Positions 9,175-38,716 of a stretch of 64,000 nt of DNA are shown one piece after another; the first letter of the stretch is position 1; the number at the start of each line of letters is the position of its first letter. Below the pieces are notes generated by a model, which did not search any database, was not told where the DNA came from, and saw only the letters and a list, made by a program, of their open reading frames with translations. Source of the DNA: Armatimonadota bacterium (lineage in GTDB: Bacteria > Armatimonadota > Zipacnadia > UBA1398 > JAKPQA01); the NCBI GenBank assembly GCA_029547025.1, contig JAKPQA010000085.1:6585-70584 (forward strand), given 5' to 3'. Made by a program: the position numbers and the translations under genes.

Positions 9175-10710
9175 ATGGGCATCGTCGGCGTATGCGCGGC
9201 GGGAGTCGTCTTGCTTTGGCTGGCTCCCGGTGCTCCGGGGCAGACGCCCGGCGAGAGAGAAGGAGACACGACCATGGCGGCGCGGACGACGAACTCGAAC
9301 CCCATCGACATTGGCTCGCGGCTCGAGCTGTTCGTGGACCGCTATCTGATCGACACGATGGACCCAAGGCTGTCGCTGGAACTTCATCCGCCCACGCCGC
9401 GCGAGATCGTGATGGTTCACGATGCGCCCTGGGAAGGCAGCGGCACGGGCTACTTCGACGTGTTCCGGGATGGCGACACCATCCGCATGTACTACATCGG
9501 GTATGGGCTGACGAACGAGGACGGCACCGTCATGTCCACTCGCCCCGTGTGCGCCTGCTACATGGAGAGCACCGACGGCATCCACTGGACGAAGCCCGAT
9601 CTCGGGCTCATCGACTTCGCCGGAACCACCCACAACAATGTGGTGTGGATCCGCGAGAGCGCCGACAACTTCGTTGTCTTCAAGGACACGAACCCCAACT
9701 GCCGGCCCGGCGAGGAGTACAAAGCCACGGCATCGGGCCCCGGCGGCCTGTGGGCCTACAAGTCGTCCGACGGCCTGCGCTGGTCGCCGCTGCAGGATGC
9801 GCCCATCATCACCAAGGGCGCCTTCGATAGCCAGAACCTGGCGTTCTGGGACCCCCTGCGCGGGCACTATTGGTGCTACTTCCGCGACTTCCACGACGGC
9901 CTGCGCGACATTCGGGTGGCCACGTCGGCCGATTTCCTCACGTGGTCCGAGCCCGAGATGCTGGCCTATGAGGACTCGCCCGACGAGCAGCTCTACACCA
10001 ACCAGATCATGCCCTATCCGCGGGCGCCGCACATCTTCGTGGGCTTCCCGACGCGGTATGTGGAGCGCGCGTGGTCGGACTCGTTCCTCCCGTTGCCCGA
10101 CCTGCAGCACCGGCAGAACCGGATGAAGATCGCGCCCCGCTACGGCACCGCCATCACCGATGGGCTGTTCATGTCCAGCCGCGACGGCCGCACCTTCCGC
10201 CGCTGGGGCGAGGCGTTCATCCGGCCGGGGCCCGAACGGAAGGACAACTGGCTCTATGGCGACGGCTACCAGTGCCTGGGGATGATCGAGACTCCGGCCG
10301 AGGACCCCACGGCTCCGCCCGAGCTGTCGGTCTACTGCGGCGAGAACTCGTGGAAGACTCCGGTCCGATTGCGGCGCTACACGCTCCGAGTGGATGGGTT
10401 CGTGTCGGTGAATGCACCGCTCGCGGGCGGCGAGATGGCCACGAAGCCCTTGACCTTCACCGGCAAGGAGCTGGTGCTGAACATGGCCACCTCGGCCGCG
10501 GGGAGCATCCGCGTGGAGGTGCAGGGCGCGGACGGCAAGGCGGTGGAGGGCTTCTCGCTGGCCGACTGCGACGAGGTGTTCGGCGACTCACTGGAACGTG
10601 TCGTCACGTGGAAGGGCCGCTCAGACCTGAGTGCACTGGCCGGACGGCCCATCCGGCTGAGGTTCGCGCTGAGCGATGCGGACCTCTACGCGCTGCGGTT
10701 TCGAGAGTAG
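9175..10710 (+). CDS. secreted BNR/Asp-box beta-propeller glycoside-hydrolase-like protein (sialidase superfamily)
   Basis: A signal-like N-terminus (MGIVGVCAAGVVLLWLAPGAPG) is followed by Asp-box-like repeats STDGIHWT, SSDGLRWS and SRDGRTFRRW. The start is uncertain; alternatives are ATG 9112 or 8887. Confidence 0.5.
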   Translation: MGIVGVCAAGVVLLWLAPGAPGQTPGEREGDTTMAARTTNSNPIDIGSRLELFVDRYLIDTMDPRLSLELHPPTPREIVMVHDAPWEGSGTGYFDVFRDGDTIRMYYIGYGLTNEDGTVMSTRPVCACYMESTDGIHWTKPDLGLIDFAGTTHNNVVWIRESADNFVVFKDTNPNCRPGEEYKATASGPGGLWAYKSSDGLRWSPLQDAPIITKGAFDSQNLAFWDPLRGHYWCYFRDFHDGLRDIRVATSADFLTWSEPEMLAYEDSPDEQLYTNQIMPYPRAPHIFVGFPTRYVERAWSDSFLPLPDLQHRQNRMKIAPRYGTAITDGLFMSSRDGRTFRRWGEAFIRPGPERKDNWLYGDGYQCLGMIETPAEDPTAPPELSVYCGENSWKTPVRLRRYTLRVDGFVSVNAPLAGGEMATKPLTFTGKELVLNMATSAAGSIRVEVQGADGKAVEGFSLADCDEVFGDSLERVVTWKGRSDLSALAGRPIRLRFALSDADLYALRFRE

Positions 10711-10855: not shown

Positions 10856-13800
10856 ATGGCCGGGGCGCTCGTAATGGTCGCGATGGCCGCAACGTACGTG
10901 GCGGCCCCAGCGGCGATGCGCGTCGACGTGGATGTCGACCACCCGGTTCAGCCGGGGCCGAACCTGATCGCGAACGGCGGGTTCGAGGACGTCGAGGGTG
11001 GCCAGCCCGTCGGGTGGCAGTGGAGCCCCCGCAACACGGACGCCACCTTCGCGTTGGTGGAGCCCGGCCGGCGCGGCGGGAAGTGTGTCCGCATCCGCAA
11101 TACGACGCCCTTGAGCCCACACGTGTACGGACAGCTCGTGCTCTCCGAGCCGGTGCCTCTTGCACCGGGCGAGACGTACGTGTTGAGTGGCTACTCGCAG
11201 TCCATCGACCCGGGCCCGGCGTGGGTCGGAGGCGGCGACGGCTGGTGGATGCGTATCCCGCTGGCCGGCACGGCGGGTCGATGGCGACGGTTCAGCCGGA
11301 CGTTCGTGGCGCGCGAAGGCGACGTCCGGTTCGCGCTGATGATCAACACCGACGGGCCCACCGAGGGGTTCCTGGTGGACGACGTCAAGCTCGAGCTCGG
11401 GAGCACCCCTACGCCCGTGGTGCGCGATGACGCGGACACCTCCCTCACGGCCGATCTGGACTTCGAGAGCCCGGTGGATGTGCCGGGCGACGAGTGGTCG
11501 TTCTCCGTGCTGCTCTCGGCGCCGTCGGCCGCGCCGGACTGCGTGGTGCGCTGCGAGGCCCGAGACGAGGGCGGCACGCTCATCGCCGTGGGCGAGAGCC
11601 CAGCCGACCTGCGCGCCGGGGTCACGGCGGCGCACGTGACGTGTCCTCTGGCGGGGATGGCGAATGTCACGGGAATGCTGTCGGTCTCGCTGACCGCTGG
11701 CGACGGCCGCTCGGCGAGCGACGAGGCACCGGTGGCGGTCTATACGCGGGCCGGGTTCCGCGAACGCTTCGCACGAGTCGCGCCGGCCGTCGAGGCTCTC
11801 CGCGCGGCCGTGACGCGCGCCCGGAATGCCGGGCGAAACGTGGCGTACCCCATTGCGGCGCTGCAAGTGGCGGATCGGTTCGGCCCGGTCGTCGAAGCGA
11901 CGGCAGATGCCGGGAACGTGCGTCTGGCCCAGGTCTATTCCGACGACCTGGTCCGCATCTGCGAGACGGCGACCCGCCAGGTTGCGGGGATCGAACAGGG
12001 CGCGCCCGATCCGTCTGTCCCCGATCCTCCCATGGGGAGGCTCCGGATCCGCGGCCGGAACCTCGAGGCGGACGGGGTGGTCGTGAACCTGGTGGGCCCG
12101 CTCGGATACGGCGAGCTCTATGACGAGCTGGACACCGTGCGCAACTACGGGTTCAACGTCGTCGGCGATGACTTCGACGCTTTCGCCTCGCTGTCGATGG
12201 TGACGGGACCCGACACGATCGATGAGACGGCCGTCCCCCGGCTTCGTGCGAACTGGGACCGCCTCCACGCGCTCAACCTGGCCATCAGCTTCAACCCGAC
12301 ACTGCACTACTTCCCCGAGTGGGCCATCACGCGCTACCCGGATATCACCGGCGGGGATCCGGTGGACCGCGTGCCCGACTGGAGCGGGCTGGGGCAGGAC
12401 CGCGGGCAACGGACCAAGGTCTACGGCGGGTTCTTCCCCTTCGCCATCGAGTCACCGACCGTGAAGCACCTGGTCGAGCGGTACTACGCGGCACTGTTGC
12501 CGGGCATCAGGGACCACGAGAGCTTCCACCTGTACTGGCTGATGAACGAGCCCACCTATCGCAGCGACGATCCCGAGTACCGGAGCGCCTATCATCGCTT
12601 CCTGCGGGAGAAGTACGGTGAGGTCTCCGCCCTCAACGAACGATGGGGCACCGGCTTCGAGTCGTTCGACGCCATCCCTCCGGCGCGGGAACCCGCGGAC
12701 CCGGGGCGCTATGACTTCATGACCTTCCACCGCGCGCATGTGGCCGACTGGTTCACGATGCTGGCCACCGAGGTGCGGCGGCACGACCCGGCGGCCATTC
12801 TGTCGAACAAGCCCATGGCCTGGACCATCATGCAGCCCGATGACGGAATCGACTTCGAACGCCAGGCAGAGATCCTCGACATACCGGGCTGCGACGCGGG
12901 CCGGTCGCCCGGATCCAGCGAGTATGCCTTCGCATGGGATGGCGCCACGTTCCTGTTCGACTTCTACAGCTCGGTGGCGCCCGACAAGCCGCAGGCGGAT
13001 TTGGAGTACCACTATGTCCACGAGCCCGAGGTCGCGGCCGAGTACGTGCGGGCTTCGTACTGGCAGTCGTACCTCCATGGGCTACGTGTCAGCACCTTCT
13101 GGGTATGGGCGCGCGGCCAACTGGGCAGCGGCGAGGCCGGAGCCGGCATGACCCACACAGCGTGGAGCCAGCCGAACGTGGGGTGGGGGACCGCCAGCGC
13201 CGCCCTGGATTTGCGGCGCCTGTCGTGGGCCATCGCCCAGTTCCCGCCGCCCGCCGAGGTCGCGCTCTACTTCTGCACCCCATCACTCTATTTGGGCGGC
13301 GGCGAGTACCAGTCGGCCATGAGCAACGCCTACCGGGGCCTGTTCTTCCTCGATGCCCCCGTCGGGTTCGTTACGGACAAGATGCTTGCGGAGGGGCGAG
13401 CAGACGGACTCAAAGTGGTGGTGCTCCCCGCGTGCCGGTGGGTCGAGCGGGAGTCCCTGGACCGCCTCCGCGCCCTGGCGGCCCGAGGCGTGAGGCTGGT
13501 CACCCTCGGCGACGGGCCGACCTTCGATGAGTACCGCCACCCGCACCCTGCCGGCAGCCTCCTGCCCGCAGATGAGGTGACGAGCGTGCGCCCCGGCCCG
13601 CCCGGCGACATCCGCCGGCAGATGGCGCCCATCCTCGACCGCGCGCAGGTCCGCCGCCCCATCCGATGCTTCCGAGCGGACGGCGAGACGCCCGAGGCCG
13701 TTGAGTGCCGGAGTGTGGTCCACGGGGACGGTGTGCTCTGCAGCCTGCTGAACCTCGGCAAAGCTCCGGTGCGGATTCGCCTCGAGCACCATGGCGAGAC

Positions 13801-13909
13801 CGTGCGTTCGTGGAAGGACCTGATCAGCGACCGGGAGTCCGATTCCGGGTGGATGGAGTTGCGGCCCAGCGACCCGCGACTGCTGTGGATCGCCGCCGAT
13901 CGGACCTAG
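10856..13909 (+). CDS. secreted CBM4/9-like carbohydrate-binding module fused to GH42-like beta-galactosidase-type TIM barrel
   Basis: Signal peptide MAGALVMVAMAATYVAAPA. A galactose-binding-like N-terminal module (NLIANGGFE...GWQW...VDDVKLE). GH42-like blocks (YWLMNEP, RWGTGFESFD, FHRAHVADWF). The start at 10856 was preferred over 10676, which overlaps the upstream gene. Confidence 0.6.
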   Translation: MAGALVMVAMAATYVAAPAAMRVDVDVDHPVQPGPNLIANGGFEDVEGGQPVGWQWSPRNTDATFALVEPGRRGGKCVRIRNTTPLSPHVYGQLVLSEPVPLAPGETYVLSGYSQSIDPGPAWVGGGDGWWMRIPLAGTAGRWRRFSRTFVAREGDVRFALMINTDGPTEGFLVDDVKLELGSTPTPVVRDDADTSLTADLDFESPVDVPGDEWSFSVLLSAPSAAPDCVVRCEARDEGGTLIAVGESPADLRAGVTAAHVTCPLAGMANVTGMLSVSLTAGDGRSASDEAPVAVYTRAGFRERFARVAPAVEALRAAVTRARNAGRNVAYPIAALQVADRFGPVVEATADAGNVRLAQVYSDDLVRICETATRQVAGIEQGAPDPSVPDPPMGRLRIRGRNLEADGVVVNLVGPLGYGELYDELDTVRNYGFNVVGDDFDAFASLSMVTGPDTIDETAVPRLRANWDRLHALNLAISFNPTLHYFPEWAITRYPDITGGDPVDRVPDWSGLGQDRGQRTKVYGGFFPFAIESPTVKHLVERYYAALLPGIRDHESFHLYWLMNEPTYRSDDPEYRSAYHRFLREKYGEVSALNERWGTGFESFDAIPPAREPADPGRYDFMTFHRAHVADWFTMLATEVRRHDPAAILSNKPMAWTIMQPDDGIDFERQAEILDIPGCDAGRSPGSSEYAFAWDGATFLFDFYSSVAPDKPQADLEYHYVHEPEVAAEYVRASYWQSYLHGLRVSTFWVWARGQLGSGEAGAGMTHTAWSQPNVGWGTASAALDLRRLSWAIAQFPPPAEVALYFCTPSLYLGGGEYQSAMSNAYRGLFFLDAPVGFVTDKMLAEGRADGLKVVVLPACRWVERESLDRLRALAARGVRLVTLGDGPTFDEYRHPHPAGSLLPADEVTSVRPGPPGDIRRQMAPILDRAQVRRPIRCFRADGETPEAVECRSVVHGDGVLCSLLNLGKAPVRIRLEHHGETVRSWKDLISDRESDSGWMELRPSDPRLLWIAADRT

Positions 13910-13964
13910 GAAGCCGCCGCGCATCGGGGACAGGTGCGCGGCGTGGTGGACAGGCGAATGCCTT

Positions 13965-13980
13965 TGTGATATCTTTCACA
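13965..13980. promoter_or_regulatory. perfect CRP/FNR-family palindrome TGTGA-N6-TCACA upstream of hydA
   Basis: The sequence tgtgaTATCTTtcaca lies 80 nt upstream of the hydA ATG in a locally AT-richer region. It matches the CRP-type consensus half-sites exactly. Confidence 0.4.
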
Positions 13981-14059
13981 AGGCGCGAGGCGCAACCACG
14001 CATCACCCGATCTGCCACTCCTCGTCTGCCTGAACCGCCGATCTTCCGCACTCTAGTGC

Positions 14060-15847
14060 ATGGGTGGGAACACTGTGGGAAATGTAGAACTAACGATTAA
14101 TGGCGTCAGGGTAGAGGCTGACAGCGGCTCGACCATCATGGACGCGGCCGACAAGGCGGGGATCCACATCCCACGGCTGTGCCATCACCCCCGGCTGTCC
14201 ATGCAGGGGGCATGCCGCGTCTGCATCGTCGAGGTGGAGGGGGTTCGGAACACCGTCGCTTCTTGCTGTTACCCGGTCCGGGACGGCATGGTGGTCCGCA
14301 CCCACACCCCCGAGATTCAGCGGCTGCGCCGCGACATCGTCGAGCTGCTGCTGGACAACCATCCCTCGGACTGTAACACGTGCGAGCGGAACGGCAACTG
14401 CGAGCTGCAGCGCCTGGCGTCGGCCATGGGCATCCGCGAGCGGCTGTTCGCGGGCGAGCGCAAGCGGTATGAGAAGGACCTCTCCAGCCCGTCGGTGATC
14501 CGGGACCCCGAGAAGTGCATCCTCTGTGGCCGGTGTATCCGCGTGTGCGGCGAGATCCAGGAGGACGCGGCCCTCAGCCAGGTCTACCGCGGCTTCGACA
14601 CGGTGGTCATGCCCGCGCACAACGCGGGGTTCATGGAGACCGTGTGTGTCTCGTGCGGGCAGTGCATCAACGTGTGCCCGACGGCGGCGTTCCTCGAAAA
14701 GGACGCCACGGCACCCTTCATGAAGGCCATCGCCGACCCAGACACCATCGTGGTGAGCCAGATGGCTCCATCGGTGCGAGCCGCCATCGGCGAGTGCTTC
14801 GGGCTCCAGCCGGGCAGAGCGTGGGAGGGACAGTGCTTCGCCGCCCAGCGCGCTCTGGGTATCGACTACGTGTTCGACACCCAGTTCAGTGCCGATCTCA
14901 CCATCATGGAAGAGGCGGCGGAGTTCGTGGCGAAGGTGAAGGCGGGTGGCCCGCTTCCCAACATCACGTCCTGCTGTCCCACCTGGGTGAAGTACGCCGA
15001 GCACTTCCACCCCGACATGCTCAAGTACCTCTCGTCGGCCAAGTCGCCCATGAGCATGCAGGGAGCCCTGGTGAAGACCTACTGGGCCGAGAAGATGGGC
15101 GTGGACCCCGACCGGATCTTCTCCGTAGCCATCATGTGCTGCACGTGCAAGAAGTTCGAGGCCACCCGCCCCGAACTGCATGTGGATGGCCGAGCCGCGG
15201 TGGACGCGGTACTCACCACACGCGAGTTCGGGTGGCTGATCAAGCACATGGGTATCGACTTCTTCAACTTGCCCGAGGAGGAGCCGGACAGTCCGTTGGG
15301 CAGCTCCACCGGAGCGGGCGTCATCTTTGGGGCCACCGGTGGCGTCACCGAGGCCGCGCTGCGCACGGCCTACTGGATGCTCTTCGACAAGGACCTGCCC
15401 AAAGAGGCCATCGAGTTCAAAGCGGTGCGGGGCATGGAAGGCGTCCGCGTGGCCACGGTGGACTTCGAGGGCCTGAAGGTCAAGGCAGCGGTGGCGCACG
15501 GTCTCGCCAACGCGAACCGGGTTCTCGACCGTCTCCGGGGCGGGGAGGAGTTCCACTGGATCGAGGTCATGGGGTGTCCGGGTGGGTGTATCGGCGGTGG
15601 CGGGCAGCCGTACGCGGGCGCGTACGCGGTGCCGCTGGATGAGGCCATGCTCCTGTGCCGTTCTTGCGCCCTCTATGACCTGGACGCGGCCCGGACGCTT
15701 CGCCTGTCCCATGCCAACCCGGACATCCAGGGCCTGTACCGCGACTATCTGGACAAACCGATGAGTCACCGAGCGCACGAACTGTTGCACACCCATTACT
15801 ATGCACGTGTGCCGTTCGGCATCCGTCCCCAGGAGGCACAGCTCTGA
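14060..15847 (+). CDS. hydA: [FeFe]-hydrogenase catalytic subunit HydA (N-terminal 2Fe-2S, His-ligated 4Fe-4S, 2x4Fe-4S, H-cluster domain)
   Basis: H-cluster motifs P1 ITSCCPTW and P3 EVMGCPGGCIGGGGQP are present. The P2 motif is a variant, IMCCTCKKFE. Accessory cluster motifs HPSDCNTCERNGNC, CILCGRCIRVC and CVSCGQCINVC are also present. Confidence 0.9.
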   Translation: MGGNTVGNVELTINGVRVEADSGSTIMDAADKAGIHIPRLCHHPRLSMQGACRVCIVEVEGVRNTVASCCYPVRDGMVVRTHTPEIQRLRRDIVELLLDNHPSDCNTCERNGNCELQRLASAMGIRERLFAGERKRYEKDLSSPSVIRDPEKCILCGRCIRVCGEIQEDAALSQVYRGFDTVVMPAHNAGFMETVCVSCGQCINVCPTAAFLEKDATAPFMKAIADPDTIVVSQMAPSVRAAIGECFGLQPGRAWEGQCFAAQRALGIDYVFDTQFSADLTIMEEAAEFVAKVKAGGPLPNITSCCPTWVKYAEHFHPDMLKYLSSAKSPMSMQGALVKTYWAEKMGVDPDRIFSVAIMCCTCKKFEATRPELHVDGRAAVDAVLTTREFGWLIKHMGIDFFNLPEEEPDSPLGSSTGAGVIFGATGGVTEAALRTAYWMLFDKDLPKEAIEFKAVRGMEGVRVATVDFEGLKVKAAVAHGLANANRVLDRLRGGEEFHWIEVMGCPGGCIGGGGQPYAGAYAVPLDEAMLLCRSCALYDLDAARTLRLSHANPDIQGLYRDYLDKPMSHRAHELLHTHYYARVPFGIRPQEAQL

Positions 15848-16386
15848 TGGCGTACCGACGCGAGGTTCTGGACACACCCGACTGGTGGCGAGAGCTTGAC
15901 GAGTACATCAACGACCAGCGCGAGAAGAACCGAGGCCACGTACAGAGCGCCCTGATCCCGGTTCTGCACCACGTGCAGGACCGGTATGGGTTCATCCCCG
16001 ACAAAGCGATCAACCACGTGGCCCAGGCGCTGGGTGTACCCACCTCATACGTGTGTGGGGTGGCCAGCTTCTATTCCTACTTCTCGCTGACGCCCAAGGG
16101 GTCATTCACCGTCGCCGTCTGTCTGGGTACCGCTTGCTACGTTCAGGGCAGCCAGGCGGTGGTGGATGAGTTCAGCCGCCGTCTGGGGATCCGGCCGGGT
16201 GAGACCACCGCGGACGGCCTCTTCACCCTGGTCGAGGCCCGTTGTCTGGGCGCGTGTGGCCAAGCGCCGGTTGTGATGGTGAACGATGAGGTCCATGCCG
16301 CCGTCACGCCCGAGCAGGTGCCGAACATCATCGCGCACTACACGGCTCTCGCCCCACGGGAGCCCGCGTCTTCGAACATGGCCTGA
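15847..16386 (+). CDS. hydC: NuoE-like thioredoxin-fold [2Fe-2S] subunit of hydrogenase (HydC-type)
   Basis: The ATGA overlap with the hydA stop indicates translational coupling. NuoE motifs CLGTACYVQG and CLGACGQAPV are present. Confidence 0.8.
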   Translation: MAYRREVLDTPDWWRELDEYINDQREKNRGHVQSALIPVLHHVQDRYGFIPDKAINHVAQALGVPTSYVCGVASFYSYFSLTPKGSFTVAVCLGTACYVQGSQAVVDEFSRRLGIRPGETTADGLFTLVEARCLGACGQAPVVMVNDEVHAAVTPEQVPNIIAHYTALAPREPASSNMA

Positions 16387-16402
16387 GGGAGCCCCGGACC
16401 GC

Positions 16403-18421
16403 ATGCGCGACGTGCCCCTGCGTACCAAGTTGCTGGTGGCGATCATCTCGGTCGCCTCGGTGGGCGGAGTCCTCACGCTCCTTGCCGGAGGGTTCCTGCT
16501 CAACGCGCAGGTGATTCAGGAGGCCAACCGGCGAGTCGAACTGGCGCTCAAGACCGCGCGGTCGGCCCTCGAGACACGCCTGGCCGGGACGCGCACGGCG
16601 TGCTCCCTGCTCGCCGACGAGCTGGGGGCCATGAACGGAGGCCCGGAGTTGGCGTTGCCACCCGAGGGCCTGCTCGAAGGGCTGCGGGACAAGGCGGAGT
16701 TCGACTACCTGCATCTGATCGATGCTCGCGGCATCATACGGGCCACCGCACGAGGAAACGCAACGGGGCAAGCGGACAGCAGTCCGCTGGTCCAGGTCGC
16801 ACTGAAGGAAGGCCGTGCCGTCGACGGGTTCCGGATTGTGCCGTCCTCGTTCCTGGCTTCCGAGAGTCAGGAGCTGGCAGCGAAGTCGCACGTGCAGGTG
16901 ATCCCAACGCCCCGGGCCAAGGGCGACAAGCAGGTCGACTTGAGCGAAGCCATGGTTCTCGAGGCCGCCTCGCCAGTTGTGGTTGCTCCGGGCCGTGTCA
17001 TCGGCGTGGTGCGTGCGGGCATGGTGATCAACCGCAACTCGGACATGGTGGACCGGATTCGGAACACCGTGTTCACCGTCTCGACCTACAAGGGCAAGAA
17101 CTTCGGCACGGTGACCATCTTCCAGGATGACGTCCGGATCGCCACCAATGTGACCGGGCCCGACGGGAGCCGTGCCATCGGGACGCGGGTTTCGGCGGAG
17201 GTGTACGATCAGGTCCTGCGCGACGGGCGGACGTGGTTGGGGCCGGCATTCGTGGTGGGCAACTGGTACGTGAGCGCCTACGAGCCCATCCGCGACGTCC
17301 AGGGCCGGGTCGTGGGCATGCTCTACGCTGGAGTGCTCAAGGATCGCTACGACGACGCGCTCCGCGACGCCATGAGCATGCTGCTCGCCATCGTGATCCT
17401 GGTGACCACCGTGGGCGTTGTCATGTCCTTTTGGCTCTCCAGTCGTATCGCGGGGCCCGTGGTTGGACTCACCCAGGCGGCAGTCCGGGTGGCGCAGGGC
17501 GAGCTGGAGTACCGGCTCCCGGAGCCGGGCTCGGCCCAACGGGATGAGATCCGACAGCTGGTGACGGCCTTCAACCAGATGGTGACCGCCCTGCAGCAGC
17601 GGGATGCACAGTTGAGGGAGACGCTCGACGACCTTCGGAGCACGAGCGACGAACTCCGGCGGTGGAACCAGAACTATCTGGACACTCTGGAGTTCATTAC
17701 CCACGAGCTCAAGAACCAGGTCGCTGCCATGAAGGTCAACCTGCTGGCCGTCCGCGATGGCTACGTGGGTGAGCTCACCGAGGAGCAGTATGAGGCGCTC
17801 GACGATGTGAGCACGGCGATCAACCGGACAGAAGAGATGATTTTAAACTACTTGAACCTGTCCCGGATCGAGAAGGGCGAACTGGAGGTTCGCGCGCAGC
17901 CCGTGGCCATCTCCTCCGACATCCTGCGGCCCGTGCTGCGGGAGCTGAAGGGGCAGTTCGAGGAGAAGCGCATGACGGTCGAGGTGCACGTGCCCGACGA
18001 CATGGTGGTCCAGGCCGATCCGGCGCTGCTCCAGATCGTCTACGAGAACCTCTTGAGCAATGCGGCCAAGTACGGCCGCCAGGGTGGAACGGTTCGAATG
18101 ACCGGCCGGCGCATCAACGGTTGGGTCGAGCTCCACACATGGAATGAGGGACAGGGCGTCTCCGCCGAGCGCCTCGAGGAGTTGTTCCGGAAGTTCTCCA
18201 GACTCCAGCCCCCGGGACACCAGGAGCGGGGAACCGGGCTGGGGCTGTACATCACGCGGGAGATCGTCCGCAAGCACGGTGGGGAAATCAGGGCGGAGAG
18301 CCGCGAGGGCGAGTGGATCGACTTCATCTTCACGCTCCCCCGGCATGACATGCTCCTTGAGGAGTTCCCTGAGGACGTTGCCGATACTGCGGAGGCACTG
18401 CAAACAACGCTGATCCAGTGA
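16403..18421 (+). CDS. membrane sensor histidine kinase (TM-periplasmic domain-TM-HAMP-HisKA-HATPase)
   Basis: There is an N-terminal TM helix, a second TM plus a HAMP domain (PVVGLTQAAVRVAQGELEYRL), an H-box ITHELKNQV, and N/G boxes (NAAKYG, GTGLGLYI). The start is at ATG 16403. Confidence 0.8.
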   Translation: MRDVPLRTKLLVAIISVASVGGVLTLLAGGFLLNAQVIQEANRRVELALKTARSALETRLAGTRTACSLLADELGAMNGGPELALPPEGLLEGLRDKAEFDYLHLIDARGIIRATARGNATGQADSSPLVQVALKEGRAVDGFRIVPSSFLASESQELAAKSHVQVIPTPRAKGDKQVDLSEAMVLEAASPVVVAPGRVIGVVRAGMVINRNSDMVDRIRNTVFTVSTYKGKNFGTVTIFQDDVRIATNVTGPDGSRAIGTRVSAEVYDQVLRDGRTWLGPAFVVGNWYVSAYEPIRDVQGRVVGMLYAGVLKDRYDDALRDAMSMLLAIVILVTTVGVVMSFWLSSRIAGPVVGLTQAAVRVAQGELEYRLPEPGSAQRDEIRQLVTAFNQMVTALQQRDAQLRETLDDLRSTSDELRRWNQNYLDTLEFITHELKNQVAAMKVNLLAVRDGYVGELTEEQYEALDDVSTAINRTEEMILNYLNLSRIEKGELEVRAQPVAISSDILRPVLRELKGQFEEKRMTVEVHVPDDMVVQADPALLQIVYENLLSNAAKYGRQGGTVRMTGRRINGWVELHTWNEGQGVSAERLEELFRKFSRLQPPGHQERGTGLGLYITREIVRKHGGEIRAESREGEWIDFIFTLPRHDMLLEEFPEDVADTAEALQTTLIQ

Positions 18422-18438
18422 GGGACGGGTGACCGATC

Positions 18439-18840
18439 ATGCCCGAGGGCCAGAAGGTCCTGATCATCGACGACGACGTGGACTTCACGGAAGCGAACCG
18501 CCTGGCTCTCGAGGCCAGCGGCTTTCGCGTCACGGTAGCGAACGACAGCAAGACCGGAGCGGAGTTGGCGGCCCAGTCGCCGCCGGATCTGGTCATCTGT
18601 GACCTGATGATGGAGCAGCTGTACTCGGGTTTCTCCGTGGTCCAGTCTCTGGCAGCGCACCACAAGACGAGCGCGGTGCCGATCATCATGGTCTCGGCCG
18701 TGACCACGAGCACGGGATTTCGCGTCGATGTGGATGGTAAGAAGCCCGAGTGGCTCAACGTCGTTGAGTTCGTGAACAAACCGATCGATCCAGTTCTGCT
18801 CGCGGCCAAAGTGGCGGCCGTGTTGGCAGCCAAGGCTTAG
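18439..18840 (+). CDS. single-domain CheY-like response regulator (receiver only)
   Basis: The acidic pocket IIDDD, the phospho-acceptor D in VICDLMM, and a conserved S/T and K (NKP) are all present. The product is 133 aa. Confidence 0.8.
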   Translation: MPEGQKVLIIDDDVDFTEANRLALEASGFRVTVANDSKTGAELAAQSPPDLVICDLMMEQLYSGFSVVQSLAAHHKTSAVPIIMVSAVTTSTGFRVDVDGKKPEWLNVVEFVNKPIDPVLLAAKVAAVLAAKA

Positions 18841-18853
18841 GACGGATGGCGTG

Positions 18854-20746
<1,893 letters not shown>

Positions 20747-20857
20747 CGGCGAAGACCCGGGGCCGGCGCCGCGACTCGGGCTCAGCGGGGTGGGCGGCAT
20801 CGCCGGCCCCCGTGCCGAGAAGGGGGCGGCCCCCGGCCGGCCGAAGGTCCTTGGACT

Positions 20858-22420
20858 ATGGCGTCCGACGCACTCGATGACCATCATGGGCCGAGCGAGG
20901 AGGTCCCCGCGCCCCCCGCGGACAAGCTGCTTGTCGTGGACGACGAGAGTGGCATCCGCAAAGGGTGTGAGCGAGTCCTCCGCGCTCGCGGCCATGAGGT
21001 GTTCCTCGCCGAGACGGCCGAGCGGGGACTCGAGATCCTCGCCGAGCATCCCGACATGGACGTGGCTCTGGTCGATCTGCGGATGCCGGGCATGGGAGGC
21101 CTCGAGTTCCTCCAGCATGCGCGCACCGCGGTCCCCGAAATGGTCTCGGTAGTCATCACGGCCTACGCGACTCTCGAGACGGCAGTCGAGGCAACCCGGC
21201 GCGACGCCTTTGACTTCCTGACGAAGCCGTTCACGCCCGACCAGCTCACGAGCGTGGTGGACAAGGCGTTGGGCCGGGCACGGCTGATCCGTGAGCGGAA
21301 CCGGCTGCGCGCGGAGCGCGAGATGCGCCTGCTCGAGCTGGCCACCGAGCAGTCACGTCTGCGCACCATTATCAACTGCATGGCCGACGCGGTTCTGGTC
21401 TGCAACGCCGAGCATCACCTCGTCCTCTACAACCCGGCGGCACTGCGAGTGCTTCCCGGCCTCAACCCCGGGAAGCCGGTGGCCAGACTCGCCGAGGTTC
21501 TGGAACCGCCGGAGCTCCTGCATACCATCGAAGAGACCGGAGCCACCGGGAAACGGCTCTCGAAGGAGATCGAGATGGTGCACCGGCGCGAGGGCGGATG
21601 GGCCCTGGCGAATGTGGCGCCGGTCGTGGATGAGACCAGCGGAAGGGTCCTCGGGTCGGTGACCGTGCTTCGCGATATCACGGAGCTGAAGAAGGTCGAC
21701 CAGGTCAAAGCTCAGTTCGTGAACATGGTGGCCCACGAGTTGCGGTCGCCGCTGGCGGCCGTGGACAGCTACCTCTCCATCATGCAGCAAGGCTTGGTCG
21801 AGGACCCGGACAAGCGGCGCGAGGTTCTCTGCCGAAGCCGGGACCGCCTCCGGGCCCTCCTGGACCTGGTCAGTGACCTTCTCGATGTGTCGCGCATGGA
21901 AGCCGGGACGGTTCGCCGCGAGATCGCCGCGCAGTCGCTGGACGAGATCATCCGCGAGGTCGCGGAGCTGATGGGACCCTACGCGGCCGAAAAGGGCGTG
22001 ACCATTCACGTCGACGTGCCCCCGAACCTGCCGCCGGTCGAGGGAGATCGCGAGGAGTTCGTCCGGCTCTTCACCAACCTGGTCAGCAACGGAATCAAGT
22101 ACAACGTGGACAATGGCACCGTCACCATCACGGCTCGTCACGAGGGCCATTTCGTCGAGGTTGCCGTGAGCGACACCGGCGTGGGGATTAGCGAGGACGG
22201 GCTCAAGAGGCTGTTCGGCGAGTTCTTCCGCGAGAAGCGGCCGGAGACGCGCTACGCGACGGGCACGGGCCTTGGCCTGAGCATCGTGAAGCGCATCGTC
22301 GAGTTCTACCACGGCCATGTGGATGTGCGAAGCGAGCTCAACCAGGGCTCGACGTTCACCGTATCGCTGCCCTGCAAGTACGAGACCAGACCGCCAGCCT
22401 CGCCGGAGGCCCATGGCTAG
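20858..22420 (+). CDS. hybrid response-regulator/histidine kinase (REC-PAS-HisKA-HATPase)
   Basis: The N-terminal receiver has LLVVDDE, a D in ALVDLRMP and TKPF. It is followed by a PAS-like region, an H-box MVAHELRSPLAAV, and a HATPase domain (NGIKYN, GTGLGLSIV). Confidence 0.8.
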   Translation: MASDALDDHHGPSEEVPAPPADKLLVVDDESGIRKGCERVLRARGHEVFLAETAERGLEILAEHPDMDVALVDLRMPGMGGLEFLQHARTAVPEMVSVVITAYATLETAVEATRRDAFDFLTKPFTPDQLTSVVDKALGRARLIRERNRLRAEREMRLLELATEQSRLRTIINCMADAVLVCNAEHHLVLYNPAALRVLPGLNPGKPVARLAEVLEPPELLHTIEETGATGKRLSKEIEMVHRREGGWALANVAPVVDETSGRVLGSVTVLRDITELKKVDQVKAQFVNMVAHELRSPLAAVDSYLSIMQQGLVEDPDKRREVLCRSRDRLRALLDLVSDLLDVSRMEAGTVRREIAAQSLDEIIREVAELMGPYAAEKGVTIHVDVPPNLPPVEGDREEFVRLFTNLVSNGIKYNVDNGTVTITARHEGHFVEVAVSDTGVGISEDGLKRLFGEFFREKRPETRYATGTGLGLSIVKRIVEFYHGHVDVRSELNQGSTFTVSLPCKYETRPPASPEAHG

Positions 22421-22464
22421 CAGCGGCGGGCGCGTTCGGTGCCCGCCCAGAGGAGTGTGCCCGA

Positions 22465-22881
22465 TTGCCTGTCGAACGGACCCTGTCGATCGTCAAGCCG
22501 GACGCCTTGAGCGCCGGTCATCTGGGTGAGATCATCGCGGCCTATGAGGCCGCCGGCCTGCGCGTGATCGCCGCGACCGTGATGCGCCTCACCCCGGAGC
22601 TTGCCGAAGGGTTCTATGCCGAGCACCGGGGAAAGCCGTTCTTCGGGGGTCTGATCGACTTCATGACCTCAGGCATCTGCATGCCCATGGTGCTCGAGGG
22701 AGAGGACGCCATCGAGCGCGTGCGCGCCATCCACGGGGCTACCGACCCGGCCGACGCGGCACCGAGCACCATTCGGGCTCGATTCGGCACCCAAGTGACC
22801 CGCAACGCAGTCCACGGCTCAGATAGTCTCGCCAGTGCCGCCCGGGAAGTCGCCTTCTTCTTCCCGCAACTGGGCGCGTAG
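22465..22881 (+). CDS. ndk: nucleoside diphosphate kinase
   Basis: ERTLSIVKPDA and the NAVHGSDS active-site His region are present. A TTG start is preceded by AGGAG 9 nt upstream. Confidence 0.85.
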   Translation: MPVERTLSIVKPDALSAGHLGEIIAAYEAAGLRVIAATVMRLTPELAEGFYAEHRGKPFFGGLIDFMTSGICMPMVLEGEDAIERVRAIHGATDPADAAPSTIRARFGTQVTRNAVHGSDSLASAAREVAFFFPQLGA

Positions 22882-22887
22882 ATCGAC

Positions 22888-23907
22888 CTAGAACTTCTGC
22901 CGCATCCGGGTGAAATACTCAGCCAACGGCTGGACCTGGCCGCGCTGGCCGGCCGGCAGCCCCCGGTAGAACTCCAGGCCGTCGTCGATAACGCCCGCGA
23001 CCTTCTGTCGGACGCCGTCCGCCCCGGCGCCCTGCATGGACGCCAGCCGGTCGAACATGGTGCCGAACATGTCCTGGGCGTACTGAATGGCCTGTGCCCG
23101 GTCTTCAGGCGACATGTTCTGGAGCTCCCCAAATGCGAAAGCGAAGATCTGCATCCTCAGTTCCTTGGGGAGGTTCGCGTACATCCCAAAGTTCTTCTCG
23201 AACCCCTCGAGAATCTCTTCATCGCTGGTGTAGTCGAGCACCTGGGCGACATTGTCGGGCGTCATGCCATACAACACATACACGGGTTTGGCGACACACC
23301 CGGCGTGCGAGGCGAGCGCCTCGATCAGCTCGCGCACTGAGCACTTGGGAGCATCCACCGCGAAGGCCTCGGCCGATGGCGTGCCCTCATAGATGAAGGG
23401 AACGCGGTACAGCGTGGCGAGCTCGCCGAGGGCTTCGGTGAGGACCACACCGTCGGCCTTGATCGGGCCTACGGTAGACTCGTCGCGGACCTTGTCCGCG
23501 GGCCGATCAGGACGTTTGAGGTCCGTCGGCTGGGTCTCCTTGCCGGTGGGGTCCTTGGGGGTGATGAGGTAACCGGGTCGGCGAGCCACGCGGCCCATGC
23601 CACCCAGTAGGACGTATACCTGGTCGACGTTCGGGGCCGTGAACTGGAGCGGGCCCACCGCGAAGTCCATCGGCTCAGCCACGGCCATGGCCACGTCGAA
23701 CTTCTCCTGGAGGTACGTCGCCAGATCCTTCACAGTACCACCGGCGAAGTTGATGGCGATCGTGCCCTTCTCCGTTTCGCCGGCGCCGGTGGCCTGCGTG
23801 GGCTGGTCTACTTGGGTGGCCGGGAGATCGTCCGATAGGGCGGCGCCGCAAACTGCGGCGATGGCGGCAAGGCAGCAGAGGAACAGACGCCTGGACATCA
23901 TCGTCAC
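22888..23907 (-). CDS. secreted hypothetical protein (339 aa)
   Basis: A signal peptide (MTMMSRRLFLCCLAAIAAVCGAAL) is present. No recognisable catalytic motif was seen. Confidence 0.4.
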   Translation of the reverse strand: MTMMSRRLFLCCLAAIAAVCGAALSDDLPATQVDQPTQATGAGETEKGTIAINFAGGTVKDLATYLQEKFDVAMAVAEPMDFAVGPLQFTAPNVDQVYVLLGGMGRVARRPGYLITPKDPTGKETQPTDLKRPDRPADKVRDESTVGPIKADGVVLTEALGELATLYRVPFIYEGTPSAEAFAVDAPKCSVRELIEALASHAGCVAKPVYVLYGMTPDNVAQVLDYTSDEEILEGFEKNFGMYANLPKELRMQIFAFAFGELQNMSPEDRAQAIQYAQDMFGTMFDRLASMQGAGADGVRQKVAGVIDDGLEFYRGLPAGQRGQVQPLAEYFTRMRQKF

Positions 23908-24311
23908 CTTCCGTGGGTCACCATGGGTCTACGATCACCATGTCTCGAAACGCAACCATGCCCGGTCGGCCCAGACACAAACCGCGCATCCGCCCTGCCG
24001 TCGGCCGGCGCAGACATGGGATGCAGCTCGCGTTCCTGGGTACTTCGACGCTCGGCGTGGCTCGCGTACTCACACCAGTCAGCGCCTCCTTGTACTGAGT
24101 TTCCCTTCCGGACAGCCGAGCCGCCAATGGGCACCCGTGCTGCCGGGCCATGCGACGGCTCTGGCGGGGCTGAGCGCCGGGGACCCCAGAGTGGATTTGC
24201 ACCGGGCCTGGACTCACAGCACTCTGCTTCGGCGAGCGAATGCGACCCAAGGGGCGGGCGCGCCGGCCGCGAATAGGCGGAACGGTGCTCTGATGCTAAT
24301 GGGGTGAGAGT

Positions 24312-27300
24312 ATGCGTCCCGAACTCCTGCTGACCGTCGCGCTGACCGCCCTGTTACTGGCCGTGGTGGCCGGTAGGGCAGCCGGTGGTGACTATGGTGG
24401 CGCCGTGCGGCGGACTGATGGGCTTGTGGCCTACTGGCCCTTCGATGGCGGACTGGAAGACGTGGTCGGGGGCGCGCTGGGGACGCCTGAGGGCATGGTC
24501 CGCTTCGTCCCGGGCGTGGCGGGCACATCCGGGATCGAGCTCGACGGCCGGGGTTTCGTGACGGCTCCACCGATCCTGGGCGCGGACGGCCCCGAGTCGA
24601 CGATCGAGCTGTTCTTCCGTCCCCTGCCGTCACCGAGCCCGGGCAACCCGTGTCTGGTCTCGATTCGGGACGAGAAGCGGGCCCGGGTCAGTCTGCACAT
24701 CTCCGCTGATCTGAGGCGGCTGGCGGTCTGGAACGGCGGAGGAGCCGGCTGGGTGGATCTGGCGCCGGAAGCGGACCTGGGAGAGGGTGTCTGGCACCAT
24801 GTCGCCCTGACCCACGGGCGCGAGGGCGTTCGCCTCTACCTGGACGGCGTGGCGTGGCCGGGGGCGGTCGGCCCGTCGGGCGAGCGCGGTCTGCCCGTCC
24901 AGATCGGCGCGCCGACCGCGACCGGTGACTTCGAGGTGTTCCGGGGCGCGCTGGATGAGGTAGCCCTCTACTCACGAGCCCTTACGGCCGAAGAGGTCGC
25001 CGCGCACGTCGACGCCGCGGGCGACGAGTGGGCCGCGCGGCGCCGGCGTATGGCGGCGGTCGCGGCGGCGTTCACCGAGGAGCAGGCTCGGCGCCGGGAG
25101 GCCGCCCGCGCCGCTCGGCGCGAGCGCGTGGCGGCCATGCTGGCTGATCCGGCGCTCCTCGAACGCGGAGAGCGCCGCGTGTACCGGGGCGACCATCTTG
25201 AAGCCATCCGCTTCTGCGTGGGCGGCATTGGGGCGGGCACGATCCAGATGGACGGCCAAGCTCGTCTTGCGGCCTGGCAGATCTTCAACAATCACACCGA
25301 GGCCGAGTTGCCCCATAGCTTCCTGGCTATCGCGGCCGGTCCCGCCGGAGCACGTCGTGTGGTCCGGTGCCTGCAGACCGCGCCCGAGGGGCCCTTCGCG
25401 GCGATGGAGCGGCTGGGATTTCAAGGGGAGTACCCGCTGGCCTGGTACGAGTTCGAGGACGGCGAGCTTCCGGTGACCGTGCGGCTCGAAGCGTTCAGTC
25501 CCTTCATCCCGCTGCGGACGCAGGACTCATCCATCCCGTGCGCCGTGTTCCGCGTGGGTGTCGCGAACCCGGGGGGGCAAAGCGTCGAGGTGTCGCTCAT
25601 CGCGGTTCAGCAAAACGCGGTGGGGTACTTGGGCCACGGCGCCGTCGAGGGGTGCGACCACGTGGACTATGGTGGCAATCGCTGCACCGTGCTGGCGCGT
25701 GACGGGGCTACGGTGCTCCACATGACGTCTGATAAGGGCCCGAGACGTCCGGGCGCGGGCGACATGGCCCTGACTGTACTGGGGCCAGCGGGCACGGGAT
25801 CGGCCGATGTGGGCCACCTCAGTGGCCTTCACCACGCGCTGGCCCAAGGCCAAGCACCGAGCGCTCCCGGCTCGGCAGGGCCGACCCCGGCCGGGCGTAC
25901 TCTCGACGGGGCAGTGGCATCGTCGTTTCGCTTGGCCCCGGGCGAGAGCCGCACGGTGACGTTCGTGTTGGCCTGGCACTTCCCGAACGCCGTACATGGT
26001 GCCTCCGGCAGCGGGTGGGACCACCATGGGAACCAGTACGCCAACGTGTGGGGCAATGCGCTGGAGGTTGCCGAGTACGTGCGCACTGAGCTTCCACGGC
26101 TGAGCCGTGAGACCCACGAGTTCCATCGGGCTGTGTACGACAGCAACCTCCCACACTGGCTGCTGGACCGCATCACCTCACAGCTGGCGGTGCTTCGGAG
26201 CCGGACGTGCTATTGGGCTCAGGATGGGTACTTTGGGGCTTGGGAGGGCTGCGGGCAAAGCAGCGGGTGCTGCGCGGGCAACTGCACCCATGTGTGGCAC
26301 TACGCTCAGGCCCACGCCCGGCTGTTTCCCGACCTGGCCCGCCGGATGAGGGAGCAGTCGCTGTCGTACCAGCGAGAGGACGGTAGTCTTCCGTTCCGGC
26401 ACCCGTCCGAGAGCGTTGCCGCTGACGGCGAACTCGGGGAGATCCTGGGGGTGTGGCGCGAGCATTTGTGCGCGGCCGACGAGTCATGGCTTTCGCAGGC
26501 GTGGCCGCGGACCCGGGCGGCCATGGAGCACGCCATCCGCACGTGGGATCCGGACGAAGACGGCGTGCTGGCGGGGTACCAGTGGAACACGCTCGACTGC
26601 GCGGTGGGCGGGAGCACGTCGTGGTTGGGGAGCCTGTATCTGGCTGCGCTGGCAGCCAGCGAGCGCATGGCGGCTCTGCAGGGCGATCCGCAGCGCGCCG
26701 AACGCTACCGAGCCATCCGCAACCGCGGCGCCGTGACGCAAGATGCCACGCTGTTCAACGGGGAGTACTACATCCAGTTGCCAGATCCCGAGCCGCGCAA
26801 CGACTACGTCGACGGATGCGCCATCGACCAGCTTCTGGGCGAGTGGTGGGCCACCCAGGTGGGACTGCCGACCGCCTATCCCGACGACCATGCGCGCCGC
26901 GCTCTGTCGGCGCTAATCGAGCACAACTTCCGGCCAACGCTTGCGGGCGTGACTCAGTCGCCTCGGAAGTTCGTCGCCGATGAGGATGCGGGCCTGCAGA
27001 TGATCCAGTGGCCGAAGGGAGACAGACCCTCGCCGTGCATCCTCTATGGGGACGAGATCATGACTGGCTTCGAGTATGCCGCCGCGGCGACGATGGTGCA
27101 GAAGGGTATGCTCCGTGAGGGGCTCATGGTGGCCAAGGCGGTCAGCGATCGGTACGACGGACGGCTTCGGGAGGGGCTGACACCGGGCGACACGGCATCG
27201 TGGGGATACAGCGGGAACCCGTTTGGGGACGATGAGTGTGGCAAGTACTACGGCCGAGCGATGAGTGTCTGGTCGCTCCTGCTCGCCTGCCAGGGATTCT

Positions 27301-35681: not shown

Positions 35682-35806
35682 CGCGTGGTCCCTCCGTACC
35701 GGGTGGTGCGGCATCGGCCGCTGGCCAGGTGGCTGGGCTCGTTCGCCGCGGGCCACTGGACACCTGCGCGTTGCTGCCGAGCCAGACCGCGGATGAGGTG
35801 CACGCC

Positions 35807-37240: not shown

Positions 37241-37409
37241 GGCGGCGCCGCCGTCCCCAAGGCGGAACCTGTCTGCGCAGAGGAGAGCGGCGCCGGGTCC
37301 CCGAATGCCTTGATGGGGTGAACGTCTCGACCCCGATGGTCACCCGCCGTGCCGCTGATCCCTCCCGGGCGCGGGTGGCGAGGCTTCCGGGCTCAGGAGG
37401 TTGGCGAGC

Positions 37410-38081: not shown

Positions 38082-38142
38082 CTAGCTGGGGGCCGAACAG
38101 TCCATGTGAGGTTCTCCATTCCCATACCCGAAGGGTGATCCC

Positions 38143-38685
38143 ATGCGCATCAGCAAGGGCGCCGTCGCGGTTCTTGTGATCGGCATCGTGGCGGTGATTC
38201 TGGGCACGTACTTCGCCGGTGAGATCCAGAACTTCGTGGCCCTGCGCGCATGGAGCACCGGGGCCGCACGCGCCGCCGCCGGCCGACTGGTTGAGGCGAT
38301 GAAGAACCGGGACCTCGAGACGGTCAAGGGCTTGTGCGGTCCGGATGTCAAAGTGGGGGAAGCCGAAGGCCAGCTTACGGGTATCGGACAGGCTGGACCC
38401 ATGGCGCCGCCACCGATTCCCATCGACCTGCTGCTCCCGAGTGAGAGTGTGGATCAGGCCACGATATCCTTCGACATTCCGCCGCCCCGGGGCACGGCAC
38501 TGGTCACCATCGCTGGGCCCGAGGGACGGACGATCAAGTACCACCTGAAGCCCACCAAGGGCAAGTGGCTGCTCGTGGGCGTCAGCTCTGCGATGACCGG
38601 CACCGCGGGGGGCGGAGCCAGCGCGGCTTCTACCGGCCCCAAGTCGTCGCCAAACAGCAAGAGCAACCCGCGGCCCGGATCGTGA
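38143..38685 (+). CDS. small type-II membrane-anchored protein, paralog 2 of tandem triplet
   Basis: It starts MRISKGA followed by a TM helix. By eye it is about two-thirds identical to paralog 1 over the first ~45 aa, and it conserves C, GPMAPPPIPI and KGKWLLVGV. Confidence 0.55.
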   Translation: MRISKGAVAVLVIGIVAVILGTYFAGEIQNFVALRAWSTGAARAAAGRLVEAMKNRDLETVKGLCGPDVKVGEAEGQLTGIGQAGPMAPPPIPIDLLLPSESVDQATISFDIPPPRGTALVTIAGPEGRTIKYHLKPTKGKWLLVGVSSAMTGTAGGGASAASTGPKSSPNSKSNPRPGS

Positions 38686-38716
38686 CACCGTCCGCGCGCA
38701 ACGGGAGATGAGTCGG

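Follow-up and report, generated by a model that had tools for sequence, protein, structure and literature searches.

The presence of signalling genes between the structural genes of a hydrogenase raises the question of what these genes do there. In a 64-kb stretch of DNA from an Armatimonadota bacterium (contig JAKPQA010000085.1, positions 6,585 to 70,584; hereafter the window, numbered from its first nucleotide), the hydA, hydC and hydB genes of a [FeFe] hydrogenase are interleaved with genes encoding a membrane sensor histidine kinase (HK1) and a stand-alone receiver (REC), and are followed by a gene for a second, hybrid histidine kinase (HK2). Our reading, held with moderate confidence, is that this is one HydABC operon carrying an HK1/REC/HK2 signalling module, which would sense formate and tune H2/formate redox metabolism. 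The genes and the predicted sensor module are located as follows:

14060..15847, + strand: hydA, catalytic subunit of the [FeFe] hydrogenase, with an M3-type domain layout (Pfam, PDB search)
15847..16386, + strand: hydC, NuoE-like [2Fe-2S] subunit (Pfam, PDB search)
16403..18421, + strand: HK1, membrane sensor kinase with a first transmembrane helix, a two-module periplasmic domain, a second transmembrane helix, HAMP, HisKA and HATPase_c (Pfam)
17039..17338, + strand: sCache_3_3 module of HK1, with a predicted formate-type pocket (Pfam, AlphaFold2, PDB search)
18439..18840, + strand: REC, stand-alone receiver with no output domain (Pfam Response_reg)
18851..20746, + strand: hydB, NuoF-like flavoprotein with an N-terminal thioredoxin-like domain and C-terminal 2x[4Fe-4S] (Pfam, PDB search)
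20858..22420, + strand: HK2, cytoplasmic REC-PAS-HisKA-HATPase kinase (Pfam)

Gene calls were checked by a Pfam scan, done on all 36 called genes of the window, and by sequence searches against the PDB. The window has a G+C content of ~67%, and the six + strand open reading frames (ORFs) in 14060-22420 show high third-position GC and the domains listed in a preliminary description of this DNA. That description had placed hydA, hydC, a kinase, a receiver, hydB and a hybrid kinase in this order on one strand, and the Pfam and PDB searches confirmed every call. Long ORFs also run antisense to these genes (for example 14090-15877, minus strand); they were rejected as high-GC artefacts, since the Pfam domains and high third-position GC are found on the + strand ORFs.

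HydA contains Fer2_4, NADH-G_4Fe-4S_3, two Fer4, Fe_hyd_lg_C and Fe_hyd_SSU domains. Its top PDB match is the bifurcating HydA1 of Thermoanaerobacter kivui (8a6t; E 8e-175, 586 bits); it also matches the bifurcating HydA1 of Acetobacterium woodii (7q4v; E 2e-160, 539 bits) and, with a lower score, CpI (E 1e-131, 443-446 bits). The H-cluster motifs, searched with the patterns TSCCPxW (L1), MPCxxKxxE (L2) and ExMxCxxGCxxGGGQP (L3), were found as TSCCPTW, MCCTCKKFE and EVMGCPGGCIGGGGQP, respectively. HydC carries the 2Fe-2S_thioredx domain (E 8e-52) and is closest in the PDB to T. kivui HydC (8a6t_C). HydB contains Complex1_51K, SLBB and NADH_4Fe-4S domains and two Fer4 domains at residues 576-627. 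It aligns end to end, with 670-777 bits, to HydB or NuoF-type subunits of solved bifurcating enzymes (Acetomicrobium mobile NiFe-HydB 7t2r_B, A. woodii 7q4v_B, T. kivui 8a6t_B and Thermotoga maritima 7p5h_B), and this full-length alignment takes in the N-terminal thioredoxin-like and C-terminal 2x[4Fe-4S] domains. By these motifs, domains and matches, the HydA, HydB and HydC calls are secure. Their similarity and composition give good support to assignment of HydABC to the NuoEF-coupled, bifurcating (Bfu/group A3) class, as the preliminary description had also proposed from composition.

The solved HydABC enzymes of T. kivui, A. woodii and T. maritima (8a6t, 7q4v, 7p5h) have the same domain layouts in all three subunits; they, or the corresponding subunits of related bifurcating enzymes, are the best or near-best solved relatives of HydA, HydB and HydC over their full length. 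The present, putatively bifurcating system differs from them in that genes for a sensor kinase and a receiver interrupt the subunit genes, with a second kinase after them. Two differences also concern the subunits. The L2 motif of HydA reads IMCCTCKKFE, with Met-Cys-Cys and not the usual Met-Pro-Cys beside the H-cluster-ligating Cys. This MCC is present in all Armatimonadota HydA orthologues (loci L004, L009, L010, L016, L018, L019, L022, L024, L049 and L050), and the Verrucomicrobiota orthologue (L038) retains MPC. Of the four Cys positions that correspond to the [2Fe-2S] ligands of A. mobile HydB, the thioredoxin-like domain of the present HydB (window 18851-19150) has Cys at only three (G-x-A-T-C ... 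C-x-G-x-C), and this pattern is kept across the whole clade including L038. The [2Fe-2S] cluster of this domain may be lost or have a different ligand.

The signalling genes are truly embedded among the structural genes. The hydA stop codon is overlapped by the hydC ATG (ATGA), and the intergenic gaps from hydA to HK2 are -1, 16, 17, 10 and 111 nt when HK1 starts at 16403. The mechanically called HK1 ORF starts at 16286 and overlaps hydC by 100 nt; the true start is almost certainly 16403 (MRDVPLRTK..., 672 aa), the start that the Joint Genome Institute (JGI) assigned in relatives with 94% identity. The gaps contain no terminator-like site, the lone + strand match being inside HK1 (2 found against 4.6 expected). 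A structured RNA in the 111-nt gap between hydB and HK2 was considered and rejected, as the predicted folding of this gap is no stronger than that of shuffled sequence (z -0.2). From the spacing of the genes, we infer that hydA to HK2 form one operon.

Is this arrangement peculiar to one genome? Related loci were collected by tblastn and gene clustering, from Pfam-annotated contigs and by an alignment-based scan of species-representative genomes. The scan gave 45 orthologous loci, all in metagenome-assembled genomes. Eleven further Armatimonadota loci, of which the GTDB species-representative scan supplied 10, have the order hydA-hydC-HK1-REC-hydB(-HK2); HydA is 70-78% identical in them. Because the same order recurs in these loci, the interleaved arrangement is not a product of chance, and the comparison of synteny suggested by the preliminary description thus places the kinase and receiver genes in homologous hyd loci.

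Beyond this order, hydrogenase or maturase genes lie within 10 kb of the HK1 orthologue in 32 of 50 non-redundant loci. They comprise [FeFe] HydABC, NuoEF-linked [NiFe] and Mvh/Hdr-type [NiFe] hydrogenases, hydEFG and hyp genes, and occur with HK1 in Armatimonadota, Thermodesulfobacteriota, Myxococcota, Verrucomicrobiota and Kiritimatiellae. In Thermodesulfobacteriota the order is nuoE-x-nuoF/gltD-nuoG-like-[NiFe] small-[NiFe] large-x-REC-HK1-HK2-hypCFDE, and in Myxococcota it is HdrBC-like-HdrA-like-MvhD-[NiFe] small-large-small kinase-REC-HK1-GAF kinase. A Verrucomicrobiota locus reads HK1-hydB-hydA-hydC-REC-REC, a Kiritimatiellae locus has HK1 and REC between two [NiFe] pairs, and two more contigs carry HK1(-HK2)-hydG-hydE-hydF beside [FeFe] or NuoEF genes. 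Some HK1-HK2 pairs have no hydrogenase in view. HK2 adjoins or is near HK1 in 28 of 42 clustered loci and REC is present in 21 loci; when neighbours were clustered over 46 loci, the recurrent partners were HK2, REC and hydrogenase subunits only. Judged by these gene neighbourhoods, HK1/REC/HK2 is a portable module, attached to several hydrogenase classes or standing alone. The set is not special to this hyd locus. All carriers are uncultured. We found no description in the literature of this Cache kinase family with its HK2 and REC partners, nor one of its association with three hydrogenase classes or its placement between hydC and hydB.

Some of these loci show features of their own. A short [NiFe] pair lies beside HK1-HK2 in proteobacterial and Planctomycetes-Verrucomicrobia-Chlamydiae (PVC) loci (L013 18509-20973, L017 4953-9442, L039 7258-9832, L051 3372-5394). 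Its large subunit of ~430 aa is 27-31% identical to the Hox-like one, and the pair is followed by a receiver and a PilS-like kinase with six transmembrane helices and a GAF domain (L013, L017) or by a HycI-type protease (L039). It could be a sensory hydrogenase unit. In L014 (Candidatus Zipacnadum), a 101-aa ORF with Fer2_4 as its only domain (9683-9988) lies directly upstream of HK1-HK2. A fucose-pyrophosphorylase/GHMP-kinase gene occurs both in this locus and upstream of hydA in the Armatimonadota locus L004, and the ORF therefore looks like a remnant of hydA after hydrogenase loss. In L012, a deltaproteobacterial HK1-HK2-only locus, a HAMP-SpoIIE (PP2C) phosphatase gene (13712-15394) follows HK2, which hints at a partner-switching output in some lineages.

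What does the module sense? HK1 has two transmembrane helices and a periplasmic domain of 290 aa, and its full-length homologues in several phyla are 50-63% identical, an unusually high value for a sensor kinase. When 1.84 billion representative proteins were searched with the periplasmic domain, 255 clusters were obtained at E <= 1e-30. The majority have a length of 635-705 aa and the domain at residues ~33-320, and this agreement in length and domain position indicates one coherent kinase family. An AlphaFold2 model of the domain (16499-17368) has a predicted local distance difference test (pLDDT) score of 93.6; in it, a long helix precedes two PAS-like modules. The second module, sCache_3_3, is the most conserved and holds nearly all invariant positions. 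It matches the Pfam profile with E 3.7e-34 over positions 3-106 of 107, alongside a partial Cache_3-Cache_2 match. The sCache-type matches returned by Foldseek are the formate-bound structures 8py0 and 8py1 (for 8py0, a root mean square deviation of 2.0 A over 121 columns at 25% identity), and whole-domain dCache matches rank beside them. With phmmer, 8py1 (E 2.4e-11) and 8py0 (E 4e-8) are the only significant PDB sequence matches of the periplasmic domain.

In the solved domains, formate is contacted by an essential Arg that forms a salt bridge (R142 in PacF, R118 in R3, R111 in R6), by Thr and Tyr as hydrogen-bond donors, and by a Phe at the pocket floor (F182 in R3, F175 in R6) that excludes ligands bigger than formate; the authors propose that this set of contacts can be used to predict formate binding (PMC11804620). 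Independent work showed formate binding by a gut sCache_3_3 domain that has this motif (PMC11844446). The predicted pocket of HK1 is formed by T238, F240, R245, T248, T261, Y293 and Y308. Among 39 orthologues, down to 35% overall identity, T238, F240, R245, T248 and Y293 are conserved in 100% and T261 in 95%. HK1 thus has the Pfam family, the fold and the Arg and Thr/Thr/Thr/Tyr contacts in common with the formate Cache domains of PacF, Atu0526, R3 (8py1) and R6 (8py0) (PMC11804620), and differs from these chemoreceptors in its histidine kinase output and its hydrogenase gene context. Zipacnadia have been reported to be without [FeFe] hydrogenases and to have a formate-using Wood-Ljungdahl metabolism (PMC10290634), and HK1-HK2 are kept in Zipacnadia loci. 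A c-type haem sensor was rejected, as the periplasmic domain of HK1 has no CXXCH. Extracellular formate, or an anion just as small, is therefore the most likely signal of HK1, a binding predicted from the pocket. Formate and H2 can be converted into one another, and formate, unlike H2, needs no metal cofactor to be bound, so that it is plausible as a cue, being a bindable proxy for H2.

HK1 may instead respond to another very small anion (bicarbonate, nitrite or acetate) or to a periplasmic binding protein, or the first, less conserved module may be the true sensor, which we consider somewhat unlikely. The pocket-floor Phe of the chemoreceptors is an invariant Tyr308 in HK1, a replacement that is conservative in size, adds a hydroxyl and could alter specificity, and an extra invariant Arg262 follows Thr261. 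The formate-like module of HK1 is the second of two, whereas PacF binds formate in its first, membrane-distal module, and formate-type Cache domains are nearly confined to chemoreceptors (PMC11804620). Among gut-bacterial sCache_3_3 domains, 22% are without a formate-based ligand assignment (PMC11844446). Against another ligand stand the conservation of the polar formate contacts, the far stronger conservation of the second module than of the first, and a sequence likeness to solved structures that is confined to two formate-bound domains.

When would enzyme and sensors be made? Two overlapping elements lie upstream of hydA:

13947..13975, + strand: promoter-like site 5' of hydA, with TGGACA, a 17-nt spacer, TATCTT and an extended-10 TG (consensus match)
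13964..13981, no strand assigned: perfect 18-bp palindrome TTGTGATATCTTTCACAA, a candidate Rex-type or CRP-like operator (sequence match)

The promoter-like site, a consensus match only, is the sole sigma-70-like match in 13000-24500. The palindrome overlaps its predicted -10 hexamer, starts 96 nt upstream of the hydA ATG and is the only match with <=2 mismatches in the 64-kb window, where ~3.9e-4 perfect matches are expected from base composition. Of the 10 Armatimonadota loci covering this region, 7 have sites with <=2 mismatches no more than 250 nt upstream of hydA; these loci are related by descent, and a binomial figure overstates their independence. Sites of this kind are also present 113-124 nt upstream of HK1 in two Zipacnadia-type HK1-HK2-only loci (L028, L030), and the right half TTCACAA is found in 10 of 11 palindrome sites. 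The motif agrees with the consensus of Rex operators, TTGTGAANNNNTTCACAA (PMC6391272, PMC2883068), and hydrogenase genes are known to be under Rex control in Firmicutes (PMC6391272). We therefore predict, from the sites themselves, Rex control of the hyd operon. Rex regulons with hydrogenase genes in Clostridia and Caldicellulosiruptor likewise have an 18-bp palindrome of the TTGTGAA-N4-TTCACAA type in the promoter (PMC6391272); here the regulon would be in Armatimonadota and would add a multi-kinase sensor module. No rex-like gene was detected by Pfam among the 36 called genes, a scope of the 64-kb window and not the whole genome, and the Rex-type motif was not found near non-Armatimonadota hydrogenase loci. 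On the short Armatimonadota contig L041, a separate site that agrees perfectly with the Rex consensus, TTGTGAAATACTTCACAA, is located shortly downstream of HK2, at the contig end (2727-2744).

The palindrome also bears on a second alternative, a classical transcriptional circuit in which HK1 and HK2 phosphorylate a remote DNA-binding regulator that turns the hyd operon on or off upon an external or redox cue. The tight, conserved linkage to hydrogenase genes would fit such a circuit, and HoxJ/HoxA and HupT/HupR act in this way. We judge it unlikely here. No DNA-binding regulator is recurrent near HK1 in the 50 loci and none is among the 36 Pfam-scanned window genes, which also lack hydEFG, and what is conserved upstream of hydA is a palindrome of the Rex/CRP type rather than the direct repeat typical of response regulators. 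The preliminary description had suggested that hydrogenase assembly or expression is wired to the module, which these results do not support. One locus has a regulator directly after HK2: in L067 (15264-17422), a 94%-identical strain variant, a gene for an OmpR-type regulator replaces ndk and overlaps the HK2 end by 4 nt, followed by a HAMP kinase, either as a real rearrangement or as an assembly chimera. As a general output this regulator was rejected, since it is absent from all other relatives and brings its own kinase.

How would a signal pass through the module? The HK1 H-box, HELKN, has the HisKA phosphatase motif (HExxN) intact. In its G1 box an Asn (residue 581), aligned to the G1 Asp of HK853, VicK and 8u4x, replaces the canonical Asp, and this Asn is present in 114 of 115 database homologues. 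In GHKL ATPases, the G1 Asp touches the adenine amino group. HK2 has all of the H, N, G1, F and G2 boxes. Its G1 box is canonical (DTGVG), with the Asp in 26 of 26 orthologues (DxGxG). Its H-box is HELRS, and HELRA or HELRS in orthologues, with no Thr or Asn at His+4, a residue that HisKA kinases depend on for phosphatase activity (PMC3510030). As the motif patterns are complementary, they suggest a division of roles, with HK2 acting as a kinase and HK1 as a ligand-gated phosphatase or an atypical kinase. The PAS domain of HK2 shows no conserved Cys or cofactor signature. REC is closest in the PDB to the PleD Rec domain, and its acidic pair, phospho-acceptor Asp55 and KP-motif Lys are invariant in 23 orthologues. 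Both receivers, REC and that of HK2, retain the acidic pocket together with phospho-acceptor Asp and conserved Lys; one is stand-alone, the other is fused to HK2, and neither has an output domain.

Compared with a canonical two-component system, in which full kinase boxes and a nearby receiver with an output domain are expected, HK1 deviates in its G1 box and the receivers have no output domain. The "complete" phosphorelay of the preliminary description can thus not be upheld, as neither an Hpt domain nor a receiver with an output domain is present in the locus. Its "two kinases" hold for HK2, which is canonical, and are in doubt for HK1, which may be a phosphatase-biased sensor given its G1 Asn.

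The receivers invite a third alternative, post-translational control, in which phosphorylated REC binds HydABC or the maturation machinery and gates activity or direction. The output-less REC lies between structural genes in 12 loci and adjoins [NiFe] large subunits in other phyla, and stand-alone receivers such as CheY and DivK often act by protein contact. We regard this as markedly improbable, REC being absent from many HK1-HK2 loci. The remaining alternative, that the kinases are passengers in the same Rex-type regulon as the hydrogenase and serve another target such as carbon flux or surface behaviour, would fit the palindromes upstream of hydrogenase-less HK1-HK2 pairs (L028, L030), the Fer2_4 remnant as the only companion of the L014 pair and the SpoIIE phosphatase of L012, but is highly unlikely, as it would hardly explain why the module was recruited, in at least five phyla, beside three hydrogenase classes that are unrelated and beside both sets of maturase genes.

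Under the reading that we favour, that of an HydABC operon carrying a formate-sensing module, the promoter -10 element would be covered by the Rex-type palindrome, and enzyme and sensors would be made together at high NADH/NAD+. The sCache_3_3 pocket of HK1 would read extracytoplasmic formate as a proxy for the external pool of H2 and reducing equivalents. HK2 would phosphorylate under its own REC and PAS inputs, and HK1, as a ligand-gated phosphatase or atypical kinase, would set the phosphorylation level of the receivers. Because neither receiver has an output domain, the signal would leave via an unlinked partner or by protein-protein contact. The job of the module would most likely be the tuning of H2/formate redox metabolism and not of any single enzyme, because the module adjoins [FeFe], [NiFe] and maturase genes. 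The earlier proposal of a tie between the hydrogenase and an extracytoplasmic signal is retained in part: the embedding is conserved, which favours a functional link to such a signal, and formate is suggested as the cue, while nothing shows control of expression or assembly.

In addition to the points on the ligand, several observations weigh against this reading. The palindrome core is also the CRP core, and a CRP-type site fits equally. The G1 Asn of HK1 may still permit ATP binding. Co-transcription is deduced from gene spacing. Formate dehydrogenase, pyruvate formate-lyase (PFL) and the formate channel FocA are all missing from the 36 Pfam-scanned window genes. Finally, 18 of the 50 loci have no visible hydrogenase gene; 11 of these contigs are only ~10 kb or shorter, and at least L012 and L029 are without a hydrogenase despite long flanks. 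A wider version of the favoured reading takes HK1/REC/HK2 as a hitherto unrecognised, phylum-spanning system that uses formate as an H2 proxy and is dedicated to flavin-based bifurcating hydrogenases working near equilibrium, with HK2 phosphorylating, HK1 dephosphorylating and REC acting on the enzyme or its maturation and not on transcription. We consider it distinctly unlikely in this full form.

Signalling genes beside hydrogenases, HATPase-only genes in hyd operons, formate Cache domains and Rex sites are already known. The HoxBC-HoxJ-HoxA, HupUV-HupT-HupR and group C [FeFe] HydS systems likewise have signalling proteins encoded with hydrogenase genes, and are presumed to adjust hydrogenase use to the H2 available. 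No sensory hydrogenase is encoded in the window, its one hydrogenase being without a PAS domain; the sensor is an outward-facing membrane Cache kinase, and no NtrC-type or other DNA-binding regulator accompanies it. In other genomes, sensory group C [FeFe] hydrogenases are found next to group A3 enzymes (PMC11406978). The putative use of formate, and not H2, as the cue for a hydrogenase system recalls FhlA of Escherichia coli. FhlA binds formate directly as a sigma-54 activator in the cytoplasm, whereas the putative sensor here is an extracytoplasmic two-component protein. In hyd operons of the Thermoanaerobacter type, a small HATPase_c-only gene lies between the nuoE-like and nuoF-like genes, which is likewise a case of a kinase-like ATPase gene embedded among subunit genes. 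Such genes were seen in L006 and L063, where they co-exist with the full-length kinase module. Their products are 150-210 aa long, without sensor, HisKA or receiver, whereas the present locus has full-length kinases and receivers.

The module is followed in the window by a further gene:

22465..22881, + strand: ndk, nucleoside diphosphate kinase, 44 nt after HK2 (Pfam NDK)

It may be co-transcribed with the module, though it is not a conserved part of it, being found in the closest relatives only and not among the recurrent neighbours. The surroundings comprise glycoside hydrolases, oxidoreductases, ABC transporters and proteins without Pfam match. An unrelated second hybrid sensor kinase (sCache_2/dCache_2-PAS-HisKA-HATPase-REC; window 29697-32018) is located 7 kb downstream amid sugar-metabolism genes. 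A run of eight ORFs of 174-1120 aa in window 34293-50648 has high third-position GC and no Pfam match at E <= 1e-5 (34293-35756 on the minus strand, 37401-39349 on the + strand, 39383-43967 on the minus strand and 44379-48434 on the + strand); in the ORF after it (48624-50648), DUF6259 is the sole match. The remaining window is rich in glycoside hydrolases (GH38, GH42-like, GH116, GH32).

Bifurcating hydrogenases work near equilibrium, with their direction set by the external H2/formate pool, on which fermentation and syntrophy in digesters, sediments and guts depend. The known ways of sensing H2 make use of sensory hydrogenases, which are costly. If our reading is true, a formate-reading Cache kinase would be a simple and widespread alternative, encoded with [FeFe], NuoEF-linked [NiFe] and Mvh/Hdr-type [NiFe] hydrogenases. 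It would extend the formate-Cache family from chemotaxis to two-component signalling, and would offer a natural case of kinase and phosphatase functions divided between paired histidine kinases. It would also give a handle, in the form of a soluble 290-aa domain with a predicted ligand and point mutants, on how uncultured fermenters decide to make or use H2.

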